Source: Patescibacteria group bacterium
GTDB taxonomy: Bacteria; Patescibacteriota; Minisyncoccia; UBA6257; GWB1-50-10
NCBI GenBank assembly: GCA_040757555.1
Contig: JBFLWN010000001.1
Location: forward strand, 1-51,127
DNA length: 51,127 nucleotides
Direction: 5' to 3'
Shown: one piece after another, positions 82 to 51,127 of the stretch
Layout of the letters: each line of letters opens with the position of its first letter
How positions within the stretch are numbered: the first letter of the stretch is position 1
The notes under the pieces: model-generated
Database searches by the model: none
Seen by the model: only the letters and a program-made list of their open reading frames with translations
Told to the model about the DNA's origin: nothing
Made by a program: the position numbers and the translations under genes

Positions 82-784
82 AATAGGTGTTATTTCTCTT
101 TTTTAGTGTATTAGTGAGCCAGTCGTGTAAAAGTTTTGTGTTTGGAATTACACAATGTCCTCCGATTTTACCGGGCATAAATTTCAACACTGGGCGTACT
201 ACATGGGGCATCCCTAATTTTTTGTATCCTCTATTGTATTCTTTATTTGCCCTTGTATAAACCACATCAAAGTCAACTTTATATTTATCACAAATACGCT
301 TTGTTTCTTTTGTATATATAATATTCCACCCATAGTATGTGGTATCGAGAATTTTCAATAACTCAGTCGTTTCTGCTTTGGAAAAAGATTCTGTCGGAAT
401 TCCAACCTCCCTAAAGTATTTTTCCGCGATTTTTGCTTTTGGGCCTCCAAAATATTTTACAAATGTCCTCATCCCCCTTTCCAAATGAGGGTGTATCCCC
501 CTTACAGGACTATGGACCGCAATGGTTCCTATTTTTTTTGTTATACCCACTGCAATAGTCGAATGAATAATAACAAGACTCGGTTTATATTCTTTTATGT
601 ACTTTTTTGTCACTCCAACAAAATTCTTTATCGGCGGATATGCAATATGAAGTACATCAAATTTGCCTACAATATAGTCATTTTTATCCCGAATAGAGAC
701 ATCAAATTTTTTCTTTAAAATATTAAAAAGCGCGTTTCCTATCTCCCCTCGTCCAATGATCAAGTGTTTTGTTTTTTTAGACAT
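80..784 (-). CDS. short nucleotide-sugar dehydrogenase-like protein (UDP-Glc/GDP-Man dehydrogenase family)
   Basis: GRGEIG Rossmann motif, HST, SPVRG, E..K..DT and catalytic GGHC (KIGGHCVIPN); lacks the C-terminal UDP-binding domain. Confidence 0.7.
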   Translation of the reverse strand: MSKKTKHLIIGRGEIGNALFNILKKKFDVSIRDKNDYIVGKFDVLHIAYPPIKNFVGVTKKYIKEYKPSLVIIHSTIAVGITKKIGTIAVHSPVRGIHPHLERGMRTFVKYFGGPKAKIAEKYFREVGIPTESFSKAETTELLKILDTTYYGWNIIYTKETKRICDKYKVDFDVVYTRANKEYNRGYKKLGMPHVVRPVLKFMPGKIGGHCVIPNTKLLHDWLTNTLKKRNNTY

Positions 785-1955
785 GGTATGAATGTGTTAT
801 TTCATTGTATGCCTCAATAAATCGTCTCGCAACTGATTCCGCAGAAAAATTGTTGTACACAAATTCTTTCCCACGTTGACCTATCTTCTCCGCTTTGTCT
901 TTATTTTCCAGTAAATCAACCACCACGTCTGCGAGAAGCTTTATATCTTTTTCAATCACAATTCCTGCTCCCGCATTTTGTATCTCTTCCGATATTGCCA
1001 CTCCCTTTGTGATAACCACCGGAAGTCCCACGGCCATTGCCTCAATTGTAGCCATACTAAAACTCTCCGAAAACGATGGGAGTACAAAGACATTACTTTC
1101 ATGGAGTACAGCTTTCTTCTCTTCTCCCGAGATAAGTCCAGTGAAAATAACTTTCTTATTAATCTTGAGATTTGAGATTTGAGATTTAATTTTTGCTATG
1201 TATCCTGCCTCATCCGGACCAGCAATGACTAGCATGGCATTTGATCTTTTTTTCAAAACGTCCGCGAACGCAGGAATGAGCGTATCAAATCCCTTTACCC
1301 AGTTTAGTCTCCCAACAAATAATACTATCTCCGAGTCCTCTTTGATTCCCCATTTATTACGGAATAAATTATTTTCCACTGGATCGAGATTTTCGCTTTC
1401 AAAGGGATTTGGAATAACTAACGCCCCTTTGAATGGAAGCTTCGTTTCTATATAATCACGCTTCTCGGCTTCACTCGTAAAATGAATCGTCGATGCATTT
1501 TTTAATACAAATTTTTCAATAAAATGCGTATATATTATTTTCTTCAAGGACTTACTTCCATACGTCTGTTTCATAAAATTTCCCCGAGGAGAAACAATGA
1601 ACGGTTTCTTATGTTTTTTTGCATAATACGCGCCAAGCAACGATGCGGAAAGAAATACTGAAGTAATATGGATAAGATCAAAATTCTGAATGTTTTTCTT
1701 TAATGCATAAAGCATTGCACTTGAGTATTCCCATGCACGAAATGTAAGGGGAAAATAAAATACTTTTACTCCATCAATATTAATCTCTTTATTCAAGGAA
1801 ACATCTAATTTTTTATCCCCATCTATATTCGTTGTGTACACCGTGACATCGATACCAAGCCTCACTAACCATTTATTCAAGATGTGCACGCTCACCACAG
1901 GGCCCCCATGACTATAGGCGGGAATATAACTTGGAGTAATGTGAAGAATTTTCAT
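777..1955 (-). CDS. glycosyltransferase family 4 (GT-B)
   Basis: MKILHI..GG start, FVGRL..VKG, PSFSESFSMATIEAMAVGLPVV. Confidence 0.9.
   Translation of the reverse strand: MKILHITPSYIPAYSHGGPVVSVHILNKWLVRLGIDVTVYTTNIDGDKKLDVSLNKEINIDGVKVFYFPLTFRAWEYSSAMLYALKKNIQNFDLIHITSVFLSASLLGAYYAKKHKKPFIVSPRGNFMKQTYGSKSLKKIIYTHFIEKFVLKNASTIHFTSEAEKRDYIETKLPFKGALVIPNPFESENLDPVENNLFRNKWGIKEDSEIVLFVGRLNWVKGFDTLIPAFADVLKKRSNAMLVIAGPDEAGYIAKIKSQISNLKINKKVIFTGLISGEEKKAVLHESNVFVLPSFSESFSMATIEAMAVGLPVVITKGVAISEEIQNAGAGIVIEKDIKLLADVVVDLLENKDKAEKIGQRGKEFVYNNFSAESVARRFIEAYNEITHSYHV
1167..1187 (-). repeat. (AAATCTC)3 heptamer array inside the GT4 gene, encoding KSQISNLK
   Basis: GAGATTT at 1167, 1174 and 1181 on +; same unit as the repeats flanking the four-helix-bundle gene. 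Confidence 0.85.
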
Positions 1956-47576: not shown

Positions 47577-49592
47577 TTACTCTATTTGTAATTTCTTAAA
47601 AAATATTTTATTTCTAATATTTGCATCCTTTAGAAGCTTTGAAAAACTGATTATTTCAATATACATACGAAACCCACCGTGATACCCAAAGTATCCTTGA
47701 TCATCGGGACTCTCGGTCAATTGGTGCCGTTTAGCAAACTCTCTTATCCTATCCACTACATCGCAAATAATATATCCATAAACTGGTGTATTACCATTAA
47801 CCCTTACCTTTTCCACGCCTTTTGGTGTTTCATATTTTCCAGCTCTGATTTCCTCTAGATATTTTCCTATTTGATTAATTGGATCGTCTTCGTCTTTGTA
47901 ATCTTCTCTTTTAGGACGCTTGAATTCAAAAATAGTTAGAGGATTACTGAATTCATTATCACCACTTCTAAATGCTCTCTTTTTATCAAAAACAACTAGA
48001 TCGGGCTCTTTTGGGGACTGTTTCTTGTTTATTTTCTTATCAGAAGCAATAAATTCAGAGAAAACTAATCTCTCATCTAGTAACCAAAGATTGTGATCCT
48101 CATAATTAACACAAGTTGAATCTTTCCCCATTGGAAAAATCACACTATGAATCTCATTCTCGTATTTAGTGGATCCATCGTCGTTTCTCTCAAGTAATTT
48201 TTTTAAAAATTCTAATACCACTTTTCTGTTGGAAACATAGTGTGCTAAATCACTTTTTCCAATTTCTGTAATTTTATTAATAAGCTCTTCTAGTTTCTCA
48301 GTAAATTTTGTAGTGTTATCAGATAATGCTTCCTCTATTTCTTTTTTAGTAGACTGCTCCCTCGAAAATTTAATTTTCTGAAGTTCTGTCTCAATCCCCG
48401 CCTCAGTAATATCATAAGGAAGAGAAGAAAAAGAAATGTCACTTAAGTACGGTCTGTACCACGGAGCCTTCGAATTTACATAATCTCTTACTTTCGATTC
48501 CTTTCTTTCTTGTCTAGGTTGAACCTCTGCTTTAAAAACATCTCTTGTGAGTTCCGCGGCGCGTCTTTCTATTTCTTTTTGGGAAAAGGGATGAAGGATA
48601 TCATTCTCTTTTTGAAATTGAAAACCATCACGTTCAGTCAAAACATTTGAATTCAGATAATTTCCAAATACATAAGTTTTTATAATGTAGTTTCTGTGGG
48701 TCATCTTATCCTTCTCATCTGTTATGGTGTCGTAAAAATCATCTTTGAATTCTGGTATGTACTCATAAAGAGCCTCTTCTGTAACCTGTCTTTTGTCGGC
48801 TACCAAACTAATTGAGCTCCGACCTCCTCCATAGAAAATCTTGAAAATCTTAATTTTAAATTCTTCTTTGTCTTTCTTATCTCCTGTCTCTAAGACAAAT
48901 TCTTTATTTTCAATTTCTTGTATCAATTCCCCCCTCCCTAGATAGTCGTTAAGAGTAATAGAATTTTTATTATCTTCTTCTTTTACTGTAATCTTCGGAC
49001 ATGAAAAACCGTCTATAGCAAAATAAAGTAATAGTTTTTCCAATAATTTTCTTGCTACTGTTTCTAATTTTTTATCAAGCTTATCAACATGTTCGTCTTT
49101 TAAATTTTCTAAGATAACTGATGTTCGAGTGTTTTCGGTATTTGCAAGTTTCTTGGATTCATTTTTGATAAAATTTTCATCTCCAACAAATTCAAATTTT
49201 CTCTCAAAATACTTCCCACCCTCCTTGTAGATACTCTCGATTCTAACGTTGTTAAAATATTTCAAAAAAGCGAACCTACCAAATCCTTTCCCTCCTTGTT
49301 TAATTTTTTGATCACTATACAAGGTGTTAAAGGAATTTAAATTTTCATCGTCAAATCCAATACCAGTGTCAGATATTACAATACCAGTCACAGAAGAAAG
49401 TCCGTCTTCGTCTATTGGTAATTTTTTATCCCTTCTCAATAAAACAACCTCTATTTCTCTTTTATTTTCCCCCGACATCTCCACCGCATCTACGGAGTTA
49501 GAGATAGCTTCCACCAAGGGTGTATACACGTTTGTTTGGCGAATATTATCAACCAATCTTTTTACATTTACATGGGGTGCGACCTGTTCCAT
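47577..49592 (-). CDS. GHKL (MORC-like) ATPase fused to a C-terminal PD-(D/E)XK nuclease-like domain
   Basis: EAISNSVDA, DTGIGF, GGKGFGRF; NLWLLDERL, EPDL...IFEFKRP, DPINQ..YL; alternative GTG start at 49664. Confidence 0.8.
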   Translation of the reverse strand: MEQVAPHVNVKRLVDNIRQTNVYTPLVEAISNSVDAVEMSGENKREIEVVLLRRDKKLPIDEDGLSSVTGIVISDTGIGFDDENLNSFNTLYSDQKIKQGGKGFGRFAFLKYFNNVRIESIYKEGGKYFERKFEFVGDENFIKNESKKLANTENTRTSVILENLKDEHVDKLDKKLETVARKLLEKLLLYFAIDGFSCPKITVKEEDNKNSITLNDYLGRGELIQEIENKEFVLETGDKKDKEEFKIKIFKIFYGGGRSSISLVADKRQVTEEALYEYIPEFKDDFYDTITDEKDKMTHRNYIIKTYVFGNYLNSNVLTERDGFQFQKENDILHPFSQKEIERRAAELTRDVFKAEVQPRQERKESKVRDYVNSKAPWYRPYLSDISFSSLPYDITEAGIETELQKIKFSREQSTKKEIEEALSDNTTKFTEKLEELINKITEIGKSDLAHYVSNRKVVLEFLKKLLERNDDGSTKYENEIHSVIFPMGKDSTCVNYEDHNLWLLDERLVFSEFIASDKKINKKQSPKEPDLVVFDKKRAFRSGDNEFSNPLTIFEFKRPKREDYKDEDDPINQIGKYLEEIRAGKYETPKGVEKVRVNGNTPVYGYIICDVVDRIREFAKRHQLTESPDDQGYFGYHGGFRMYIEIISFSKLLKDANIRNKIFFKKLQIE

Positions 49593-49663
49593 CACTGCAA
49601 AAAATTTTTTTGATGTATTTTTTTCCAATTCAAAATAAACTACATAAGAATAATACCACTCCA

Positions 49664-50227
49664 CTAATTAATGTTAAGTCTTGTGTAAAACACTTCTATT
49701 TCTTGTATTGGCATAAAAACACCGCTCCCTATCTCAAATTTTGTCGAGTTGTGCCCAGTAGGACAGCAGAAACTCGGCATTTGGCGGTCTAGATCTATCC
49801 ACTCCACATAGAACCCTCCATTATCTGCCGGTTTAATACGCGAAATTCCAACGTTCTCGGTCGAAAAGATTACTCTCCCACTCTTTACTATCACCCCATA
49901 TTGAGGACAATGATTTGACCCATTTTCACAGATGTTCAATATCTGCTCTCGTTCTCCATCACTATCTATATCAGCCTCTATTCCGTTCACATCAAATTGT
50001 TCCGCTTTCGGAAAATTAAACACATACGAAGATGTGGAATATCCACTTAAAAGGATTGATGCGTGTATGGTTGAAGAAACTATCTCACATTCAAAATATG
50101 CGCATCCAATATTTTGATCTAATAGTTTATTTTCTTTCACGAAGAAAAGTTGAAAAGCGATTGCGATACAAAAAATTACAAATTCAAAGATAATGATTTT
50201 CTTGTGTTCGATAAAAAAATTCTTCAT
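49664..50227 (-). CDS. membrane-anchored hypothetical protein
   Basis: N-terminal TM, DIDSDGERE loop, CCP motif. Confidence 0.7.
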   Translation of the reverse strand: MKNFFIEHKKIIIFEFVIFCIAIAFQLFFVKENKLLDQNIGCAYFECEIVSSTIHASILLSGYSTSSYVFNFPKAEQFDVNGIEADIDSDGEREQILNICENGSNHCPQYGVIVKSGRVIFSTENVGISRIKPADNGGFYVEWIDLDRQMPSFCCPTGHNSTKFEIGSGVFMPIQEIEVFYTRLNIN

Positions 50228-50361
50228 GAATTATTCGAAGAAATATTCAAATAAACTATTTTTAGGGAAGTTGGGAATAAATACATTCTCACTGACTTTT
50301 TAGAAAAAATGGAAAAATAAAGAGATTGGATTTCATTGGCTCTTCCTAATTCTATATAACC

Positions 50362-50673
50362 CTAATCTATACATCCGGAAACATTACAAATCTCATCACA
50401 TACATTTAGTCCATACTCATCTGTCTTGCAATCTTTTACACACTCAAATCCCTCGTTCATAAACTTCTGTTTCCCGATTGATAGACATTCTTGAGCAGAA
50501 GAAAATCCTGGTATTGTATAACTGTTTTCATAACACTCAGAATTATTCACTTTAGATTTACATACAATCAATGACCACTCATCTTTTTTGAATACTGTTG
50601 GTATAACAAAAATAAAAAGTAGTATAGCGACAATCCCACCAATGATAGAAAAAATAATTTTTTTATCTTTCAT
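50362..50673 (-). CDS. small membrane-anchored Cys-rich protein
   Basis: N-terminal TM, 8 Cys in the extracellular part. Confidence 0.72.
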   Translation of the reverse strand: MKDKKIIFSIIGGIVAILLFIFVIPTVFKKDEWSLIVCKSKVNNSECYENSYTIPGFSSAQECLSIGKQKFMNEGFECVKDCKTDEYGLNVCDEICNVSGCID

Positions 50674-50689
50674 ATTTTTGACCCTTAAC

Positions 50690-50858
50690 GTGCCGCTAGG
50701 AACACAAAGCTCCCAGCCAGCGATCCTTGCGGACCCATACAGGTTTCCCCATATGACGGTTCAACGTGCTCTGACTAGGAGCTTAATACGTTGAACCGTT
50801 TTCTAAACCATGCCGATTACTCGGTTTAGGTCCTGCCTAATGGCTATTTAGTTGTGCT
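50690..50858 (-). ncRNA. candidate highly structured RNA (5' leader of 50362..50673 or independent ncRNA)
   Basis: three GNRA-capped hairpins, a 12-bp stem, a 14-bp long-range helix and a closing stem; G-U pairs favour the minus strand; TATAAT at 50867-50862. Confidence 0.7.
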
Positions 50859-50893
50859 TTCATTATAAGTGTAAAAAAATTAAAATAAAACCA

Positions 50894-51127
50894 ATGACAA
50901 AGAACGGTGAAAAAATAAGAGAGGAACTCAAAAAAGAGATTATTGATACCCTACTAAGATCCGCCAAGAGAAACGAAAATAAAACTTTTTTATATCTCTC
51001 CGATATTGATGAGGTAGGACCGTCTTATATCGAAAGGGTTGGCTTCTTAGAATCACTTAAAAAAAGTGGGGTTATAACAAAATTTAAAGAAGTTGAGAAA
51101 GTAGATCAGTTTGAAGAATGGGATGAA
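50894..51127 (+). CDS. 5' part of a hypothetical protein running off the window
   Basis: ATG at 50894, open to the end (MTKNGEKIREELKKEII...). Confidence 0.6.
   Translation, partial: MTKNGEKIREELKKEIIDTLLRSAKRNENKTFLYLSDIDEVGPSYIERVGFLESLKKSGVITKFKEVEKVDQFEEWDE

Follow-up and report, generated by a model that had tools for sequence, protein, structure and literature searches.

The structured RNA encoded at positions 50722-50832 on the minus strand of the window (the whole stretch of DNA analyzed, 51,127 nt) is almost certainly a copy of LOOT RNA (Rfam RF03000), a class that is already catalogued as an orphan family and whose function is unexplained. On balance we favor the reading that it is a cis-acting, switchable leader with a terminator-like, possibly conditional helix formed between a hairpin loop and a tail that lies outside the Rfam model. 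The cmscan match reaches 78.2 bits where the gathering score is 46.4 (E = 4e-13); it spans the full model (positions 1-121 of 121) without truncation and is the sole gathering-level Rfam match in the window. The first-pass annotation had considered the element unrecognised and assignable to no known family, a view that fails by the very cmscan comparison it had proposed, since with a confident Rfam match the RNA can no longer count as a new class. What is new here is the placement of LOOT in real genomes, the extension of its structure beyond both ends of the Rfam model, and testable evidence, drawn from about 140 relatives, for a role in cis.

Searches around the element at E values up to 1 returned, besides LOOT, just a chance-level match to ctRNA_pT181 (23 bits, gathering score 56), and thus no Rfam riboswitch or ribozyme family. 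A tRNA and tmRNA scan of the window found none, and blastn of the element against a phage collection gave no match. Rfam types RF03000 as "Gene; sRNA". The family belongs to the Weinberg/Breaker collection of metagenome-derived motifs, and it is publicly described as known from metagenomes alone and as presumed to be a trans-acting RNA. The motif is presumably described in the supplement of Weinberg et al. 2017. As far as the accessible portions of the literature extend, LOOT is mentioned in Rfam release papers and one structure-prediction paper only, with nothing on function or host: the Rfam 14 paper gives it as a metagenome-based family in its Figure 1 legend (PMC7779021), a table of the Rfam 15 paper records two covarying pairs added to it (PMC11701678), and the structure-prediction paper uses it as a passing example. 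The discovery paper (PMC5737381) never names the motif in its main text, where "Loot" occurs only as the name of an author in the reference list.

The genome from which the window derives (873 kb, 32 contigs) carries two LOOT copies. In counts that each include this genome, LOOT exceeds the cut-off in 8 of 61 close relatives, and samples of 151 genomes apiece gave 27 carriers at the level of the order, 29 at that of the class and 30 at that of the phylum. None of 14 control genomes had a match over the cut-off; all LOOT-bearing genomes measure 0.5-1.4 Mb, and up to five matches occur in a single one. A scan for the tail pattern in one genome per species yielded 66 loci, 60 of them with a full LOOT just upstream; this wider census relied on a 19-base tail pattern and covers one subfamily outside the phylum, broad degenerate DNA patterns having been dropped because of the thousands of chance matches estimated for them. 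The named carriers are mostly Patescibacteria/CPR, among them many Saccharibacteria, Parcubacteria/Paceibacteria, Moraniibacteriota and Microgenomates, as well as Nealson-, Woese-, Davies-, Beckwith-, Doudna-, Harrison-, Staskawicz-, Terry- and Magasanikbacteria, and nine full copies come from records whose titles name something other than Patescibacteria/CPR. On a putative viral contig, one copy adjoins a serine recombinase.

The first-pass annotation had proposed a structured RNA on the minus strand, and the helices that it listed were all found there, with their sequences and coordinates correct. A 178-nt stretch has a minimum free energy of -73.1 kcal/mol, against a mean of -47.0 (sd 4.1) for dinucleotide shuffles (z = -6.39, none of 200 as low), and the core, as had also been noted, is GC-rich in an AT-rich context (about 0.48-0.51, compared with 0.25-0.37 in neighboring 170-nt windows). 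The core consists of P1/P1a with a GUAA loop (50806-50832), in which GACCUAAACC...GGCAUGGUU carries the CCUAA...AUGG internal loop around a small hairpin, of P2 (50756-50799), a hairpin with a 12-bp stem here (50799-50788/50767-50756, all pairs standard) and a 20-nt loop, of P3 (CAUAUGGG-GAAA-CCUGUAUG, 50736-50755, with the GAAA at 50747-50744), and of P4 (GGUCC-GCAA-GGAUC, 50722-50735). P2, P3 and P4 abut one another in this copy, both by cmscan and in the fold. This arrangement of P1/P1a, long P2, GAAA-capped P3 and GNRA-capped P4 is that of RF03000, with no differences in the core; the Rfam model, in contrast, ends at P4, so that the 5' motif, tail arm, U tract and distal arm described below fall outside it, and it draws the tip of P2 as a further 8-bp helix, a region that pairs partly here and serves instead as the partner of the tail.

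Conservation was assessed on 91 relatives (93 loci minus L010 and L033, both below the cut-off), aligned with MAFFT over the core and 30 nt of tail (alignment A1), and on 95 matches realigned with a covariance model, R1, built from A1 (alignment A2). In A2, which like a further alignment, A3, is fitted to an in-house model and whose relatives are not independent, P1 is paired in 92.5% of cells, P2 in 85.8% (11/11 pairs compensatory) and P3 in 97.8% (8/8 pairs compensatory), and P4 in 66.2% overall, its three outer pairs holding and its inner pairs being misaligned because the helix varies in length. Likewise, P2 is paired in about 49% of cells of A1, where this helix of variable length is misaligned. 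The P4 loops of the family are mostly GCAA or GAAA, with a few UUCG.

The bases that scarcely vary are the CUAA and AUGG of P1 and the GAAA of the P3 loop. Among the 91 relatives C4, U5, A6 and A7 are invariant, A22, U23, G24 and G25 are conserved in at least 90%, and the GAAA is present in every copy (84 in register; in seven, a one-column shift of the alignment makes it read AAAG). The internal loop of P1, CCUAAA (50830-50825)/CAUGG (50812-50808) in the window, occurs in the family as CCUAAA/CAUGG in 54 copies, CCUAAC/UAUGG in 25, CCUAAG/UAUGG in 2 and UCUAAA/CAUGA in 3, the last with a C-G to U-A change that keeps the pair. In one study the canonical 11-nt receptor of GAAA tetraloops is CCUAAG_UAUGG, and UCUAAA/CAUGA is among the receptor variants tested (bioRxiv 10.1101/2024.03.11.584472). 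Based on this pattern of conservation, the GAAA of P3 most likely docks into the CCUAAA/CAUGG loop of P1, in the manner of the tetraloop/11-nt receptor contacts of group I introns, RNase P and engineered scaffolds. LOOT shares with these the invariant GAAA and a CCUAA(A/C/G)...(C/U)AUGG receptor, canonical in two copies, and differs in that the canonical closing G-U is mostly A/C or C/U. With the tetraloop and its receptor accounted for, few conserved unpaired bases remain among the 91 relatives for a ligand pocket. The ribozyme option raised in the first-pass annotation gained no support: no ribozyme family matched at E up to 1, and the invariant bases are almost all explained by tetraloop and receptor.

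The family also has a long-range helix beyond the reach of the Rfam model. In it, 14 bases from the loop of P2 (loop arm A, AAGCUCCUAGUCAG, 50784-50771) pair with the tail that follows P4 (tail arm B, CUGGCUGGGAGCUU, 50720-50707) over 14 bp, as had been proposed for this copy. In A1, 91.6% of the cells of this helix are paired compared with 75.0% after shuffling, a level reached by none of 500 shuffles, and all 14 pairs have changed on both sides; sliding the partner by 1-3 columns lowers pairing to 39-55%. In A2 the two stretches of the helix, which is not among the pairs of the model, are paired in 89.8% and 91.8% of cells, again with 14/14 compensatory. The tail of each locus pairs with its own P2 region at a mean of -27.9 kcal/mol, compared with -18.6 for tails taken from other loci, its own being better in 89/91. 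The expectation of a pseudoknotted RNA with GNRA hairpins is thereby borne out, covariation establishing a true loop-to-tail pseudoknot. A 4-bp mini-hairpin within the loop arm (GCUC/GAGC) is paired in 69.3% of cells versus 61.1% after shuffling, and none of 500 shuffles reach this value. The argument that wobbles read as G-U on the minus strand point to selection on an RNA holds for the family too: U-G is the commonest pair at two positions of the loop-tail helix, in 55 and 70 of 94 distinct rows of A2. A 14-bp helix within a 20-nt loop is sterically demanding, and this helix and P2 may form in alternation, not together.

Directly after this helix comes a U-rich tract (UUUGUGUU, 50701-50708, the end of the helix and just beyond). 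U126, U127 and U129 are conserved in at least 90% of the 91 relatives, and the 9 nt past the helix hold a mean of 5.6 U, with at least five U in 74/91 loci, against a background T frequency of 0.31. The 5' flank of the helix is A-rich and able to pair with the U tract. In these respects LOOT resembles intrinsic terminators, which share the G+C-rich helix, the A-rich 5' flank and the U-rich tract directly after it; the same 21-base pattern of tail plus U residues also makes up the 3' side of ordinary, local terminator hairpins in seven phage contigs that are related to one another but otherwise unrelated. It departs from them in that its arms lie about 50 nt apart and that the 5' arm sits inside the loop of another helix, making the putative terminator stem a pseudoknot. 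A simple terminator scan of 50300-51127 accordingly gave no site at the element and no local hairpin that passes, since the stem is long-range. We would tentatively regard the loop-tail helix as a conditional terminator, a role that it may have but that we hold short of probable. The U tract may merely lengthen the helix by way of the A-rich flank.

A candidate for the other state of the tail is found immediately downstream. The distal arm (GUUCCUAGCGGC, 50692-50703) can pair back to tail arm B in a 12-bp tail hairpin, P5, whose loop contains the U tract, and this hairpin is part of the minimum-free-energy fold of the window's copy. Across the family, a distal arm right after the U tract pairs with the tail at -12 kcal/mol or below in 40/91 loci, and the locus's own tail matches or beats all 15 swapped tails in 18/91 against about 6 by chance, a control that is weak because the tails resemble one another. 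Other upstream or internal partners for the loop arm or the tail were sought, and none exceeded the swapped-locus controls, so that no RNA-encoded anti-terminator was found. These observations bear on an alternative in which LOOT is a constitutive structured 5' cap, devoid of ligand or switch, that protects accessory mRNAs from decay at the 5' end or, in the manner of processive-antitermination RNAs, recruits RNA polymerase or a protein. Leader position and a promoter of its own (see below) would suit such a cap, as would conserved bases that are nearly all structural (tetraloop and receptor), the remaining sequence being free to vary, and downstream genes that are diverse and in many cases secreted or membrane proteins. 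However, it explains neither the alternative partners, namely the distal arm of the tail and the P2 copy at the start codon discussed below, nor the conserved U tract, and a conserved single-stranded 5' end would offer nucleases an entry point; we consider it rather improbable.

The favored reading of a switchable leader begins with a transcript that starts at LOOT itself. A sequence fitting [ACT][ACT]AAYTNART was found within 50 nt upstream of P1 in 58/91 relatives, 9-32 nt before P1 (family consensus ACAAYUNAAU, outside the Rfam model), and a TATAAT-like hexamer (at least 5/6 identical) lies within 25 nt upstream of this strict motif in 46/58, mostly 6-7 nt away, compared with a rate of 20% at random positions in the same loci. 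In the window, TATAAT at 50867-50862 precedes the motif ACAACUAAAU at 50855-50846; the TATAAT noticed just before this element thus has counterparts in many relatives. A simple sigma-70 scan identified no full -35/-10 pair at the element, and a search by eye for a pairing partner of the 5' motif found none. Judging from sequence, LOOT probably has its own promoter, the 5' motif representing the first bases of the transcript.

The remark that the element stands just upstream of an ORF likewise extends to the family. An ATG-initiated ORF of at least 60 aa on the same strand starts 15-200 nt after the core in 81/91 loci, although ORFs were called naively and compact genomes are rich in co-directional neighbors anyway, and in 58/91 loci the start falls at +35 to +74, that is 11-50 nt past the U tract. 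Divergent upstream ORFs, found in 45/91 loci, are broadly spread with no peak. A further 49 distinct loci, chosen by tail sequence and hence sharing the tail pattern by construction, gave such an ORF in 43/49, the start lying at +35 to +74 in 27. The window itself has a 103-aa ORF (50362-50673, minus strand) whose ATG, at 50673, lies 48 nt after the Rfam core; the predicted protein has an N-terminal hydrophobic segment and a Cys-rich remainder, and no family was found for it. A distance of 11-50 nt between U tract and start codon (48 nt from core to ATG here) leaves no space for a separate promoter, and the ORF would thus be transcribed through LOOT. We consider it probable that LOOT acts in cis as the leader of the co-directional gene and not as a trans-acting sRNA.

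The latter is nevertheless the main rival. It supposes a stand-alone trans-acting sRNA of about 150-170 nt, running from ACAAYUNAAU to the U tract, in which the loop-tail helix is a constitutive terminator and nearness to a gene just reflects compact genomes. The Rfam type, the -10 box of its own, a conserved and probably single-stranded 5' motif that could act as a seed, the terminator-like end, the presence of up to five copies per genome and the heterogeneity of the neighbors all fit this account. Independence from the neighboring gene, on the other hand, is not what the loci display, given the tight spacing and the complementarity into the start region: a same-strand ORF follows 81/91 copies, its start clustering sharply 35-74 nt past the core, as is replicated in the second set; a distal arm past the U tract pairs with the tail in many copies; and about a quarter of the family carries at the start codon a locus-specific copy of the 5' strand of P2, which is sensible only on a shared transcript. 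A stand-alone sRNA is therefore, in our view, unlikely.

Tabulation of the downstream genes had been suggested in the first-pass annotation; the outcome is heterogeneous. A Pfam family (E <= 1e-5) was assigned to 30/81 downstream proteins, leaving 51/81 without one, and an N-terminal hydrophobic segment is present in 56/81. The families comprise DNA methylases (7, two of them fused to Mrr_cat), DUF4352 (5), SNase (3), zinc-ribbon (3), Trypsin_2 (2), TylF (2), NOV_C, DUF2726, a TnsA-like protein and others, with proteases and nucleases included, and no shared pathway pointing to a ligand was found among the 81 proteins. This weighs against a classical small-molecule riboswitch, for instance a cyclic-dinucleotide sensor, with LOOT as the putative aptamer and with switching by the loop-tail helix and P2. 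Such a riboswitch would account for the features resembling an expression platform, for the consistent 5' leader position (81/91 and 43/49) and for two candidate pairs of mutually exclusive structures, the loop-tail helix versus the tail hairpin and P2 versus the start-codon mimic. Cyclic-di-GMP class I riboswitches likewise rely on a tetraloop-receptor contact and are found ahead of a wide variety of genes, a likeness that also speaks for it. Nonetheless, conserved pocket-like unpaired bases, a coherent gene set of the kind that marks a metabolite riboswitch, an Rfam riboswitch family at E up to 1 and an upstream anti-terminator are all missing, and a classical riboswitch of this type seems quite improbable. 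As for the two-state leader envisaged in the first-pass annotation, the evidence across the family favors it.

A second candidate switch within the cis-acting leader involves P2 and the start codon of the downstream gene. The 3' strand of P2 has a complement of -12 kcal/mol or below 12-160 nt downstream in 28/91 loci, and the locus's own strand matches or beats all 15 strands from swapped loci in 23/91, against about 6 by chance. Of these 28 loci, 23 have a start codon (ORF of at least 30 aa) placed between -4 and +12 nt relative to the site's end, mostly at 0-4 nt. The site is a copy of the 5' strand of P2, with exact direct repeats of 10-27 nt in 19/91 loci, and varies from locus to locus together with P2, so that the 3' strand of P2 can pair with either. 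In nested folds, P2 and the downstream pairing are near-equal in energy, the downstream pairing prevailing in L019 and P2 being kept in L045, L030, L073, L068 and L003. In the second set, the locus's own P2 strand matches or beats all 15 swaps in 12/49, and eight of these 12 sites, as read by eye, begin at +46 to +64 and abut the ATG. In translational ON-riboswitches such as the add adenine riboswitch, a strand of the aptamer pairs alternatively with the start region. LOOT is similar in that about a quarter of its copies repeat the 5' strand of P2 just 5' of the start codon, and different in that its switching helix would be an internal one, P2, and not the closing helix. The arrangement is absent from the window's own copy (-6.2 kcal/mol, z = +1.1). 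In L016, the 27-nt repeat falls inside a degenerate second LOOT copy.

Repeats of this kind could also arise at the level of DNA, the direct and inverted repeats being scars left where a mobile cassette recombined or inserted. Direct repeats as long as 27 nt, the variable downstream genes, the copy beside a serine recombinase and the location of the L016 repeat are in keeping with such an origin. It is, however, contradicted by the strong strand-specific covariation, with many G-U pairs that would be A-C on the other strand, by the invariant GAAA and receptor bases, and by repeats that end at start codons, and we regard a DNA-level element as extremely improbable.

Returning to the switchable leader, we hypothesize the following course of events. 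The minus strand would be transcribed from the -10 box at 50867-50862, starting at about ACAACUAAAU (50855), and the RNA would fold into P0 (a small 5' hairpin described below), P1/P1a, P2, P3 and P4. Docking of the GAAA into its receptor would create a rigid scaffold (P1, P3, P4, tetraloop and receptor) that presents the P2 loop to the emerging tail. The 14 bases of the P2 loop would then pair with the tail at 50720-50707 in a terminator-like stem that holds the 3' strand of P2, P3 and P4 in its loop, and whether this helix forms, possibly in response to a signal, would decide between a stop of RNA polymerase at the U tract and read-through. In the read-through RNA the tail would re-pair with the distal arm as P5, for which the window's copy has the sequence, and in about a quarter of the members the 3' strand of P2 would re-pair with the copy of its 5' strand at the start codon, coupling the fold to translation. 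The window's copy would therefore work with the terminator-like module and P5, without the start-codon mimic.

A bolder proposal, which we advance tentatively and with less confidence than the role in cis, is that LOOT might be a Patescibacteria-wide cis leader, with an intrinsic terminator that its rigid tetraloop-receptor scaffold builds from a pseudoknot and with gating of the start codon in many copies, that controls, in response to some signal, accessory genes for surface or secreted proteins, nucleases and DNA methylases. If true, it would be the first widespread lineage-specific riboregulator for ultra-small bacteria and would represent a new terminator design. Should the role in cis hold by itself, gene regulation in a huge and mostly uncultured lineage would be opened to experiment.

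Two further helices that had been listed for the window proved particular to this copy and were rejected as features of the family, covariation across homologs having established P1, P2, P3 and the loop-tail helix as conserved or compensatory. The helix CUAAACC/GGUUUAG, said to compete with CCGA-GUAA-UCGG, is present as sequence and yet is paired in 47.6% of cells, the level of shuffled alignments (312 of 500 reach it). The closing stem, GCCAUUAGG at 50844-50836 with CCUAGCGGC at 50700-50692, exists here but is not conserved: own flanks give -4.7 kcal/mol and swapped-locus flanks -4.2, and own flanks match or beat all 15 swaps in 7/89 loci, with about 6 expected by chance. Its 3' arm is the distal arm of the tail hairpin, and its 5' arm is part of the optional hairpin P0 (GCC-AUUA-GGC, 50835-50844), which appears in both the minimum-free-energy and the centroid folds. 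A local hairpin of -2 kcal/mol or below occurs 5' of P1 in 22/89 loci, and small P0-like hairpins with other sequences are found in L004, L006, L022, L026 and L049.

The region downstream of LOOT (the structured RNA of Rfam family RF03000) in the window looks like a set of accessory or hypothetical genes. Three genes downstream of the RNA, a 695-aa ORF (47577-49664, minus strand) displays an N-terminal match to HATPase_c_3/HATPase_c, which is weak and under the curated cut-offs, and no family was found for the neighboring 187-aa and 165-aa products of this region. Among the LOOT loci gathered from related genomes, the commonest recognisable genes immediately behind the RNA encode DNA methyltransferases (L003, L011, L030, L038, L041, L045 and L068), and in two of these seven loci an Mrr-type nuclease domain is fused to the methyltransferase. 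All except L038 harbor the start-codon mimic, a copy of the 5' strand of P2 at the start codon of the downstream ORF, and no obvious Shine-Dalgarno sequence is present in these six mimic-bearing loci.

A full LOOT (86.5 bits) was found on L176 (9854-9992, plus strand), a 12.4-kb contig of putative viral origin, and therefore LOOT is also carried by a mobile element or prophage. This copy is divergent from a large serine recombinase gene and is followed by a small ORF whose product begins with a signal-peptide-like segment. Further genes of the contig encode a ParB-methylase, a Bro-N protein, a Schlafen/AlbA_2 protein and an Eco57I-type methylase. The 21-base tail pattern is also found in seven related phage (viral) contigs (L161-L166 and L168), in which it supplies the 3' half of a terminator hairpin of the ordinary, local kind located behind a gene, and LOOT is absent upstream of the pattern in all seven.

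Full copies also occur in nine records titled as Bathyarchaeota/Bathyarchaeia, Gammaproteobacteria, Pseudomonadales, Flavobacteriaceae or Latescibacter (L095, L108, L112, L118, L120, L121, L122, L126 and L140). Five genomes among these carriers measure 1.0-3.3 Mb. Such contigs may be mis-binned or mislabelled, rather than representing a true occurrence of LOOT outside Patescibacteria.

The genome of the window (G000) holds a second LOOT copy on contig C5 (57622-57761, plus strand; L002:1501-1640; 66.8 bits), with a long insertion in P1a. Its loop, CCCAUCAUCAGG, and its tail, CCUGGUGGUGGG, followed by UUUUUU, differ from those of the window copy. Copies within one genome bear different loop-tail 'codes', as is likewise observed for L008 and L011. 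Tandem arrangements were found at two loci. At L016, the copy (1289-1415, minus strand) is followed after 57 nt by a second, degenerate LOOT-like match (28.3 bits with our covariance model), which accounts for the 27-nt repeat of this locus, and the L041 copy (232-381, plus strand) is preceded by another full LOOT about 1.1 kb upstream.
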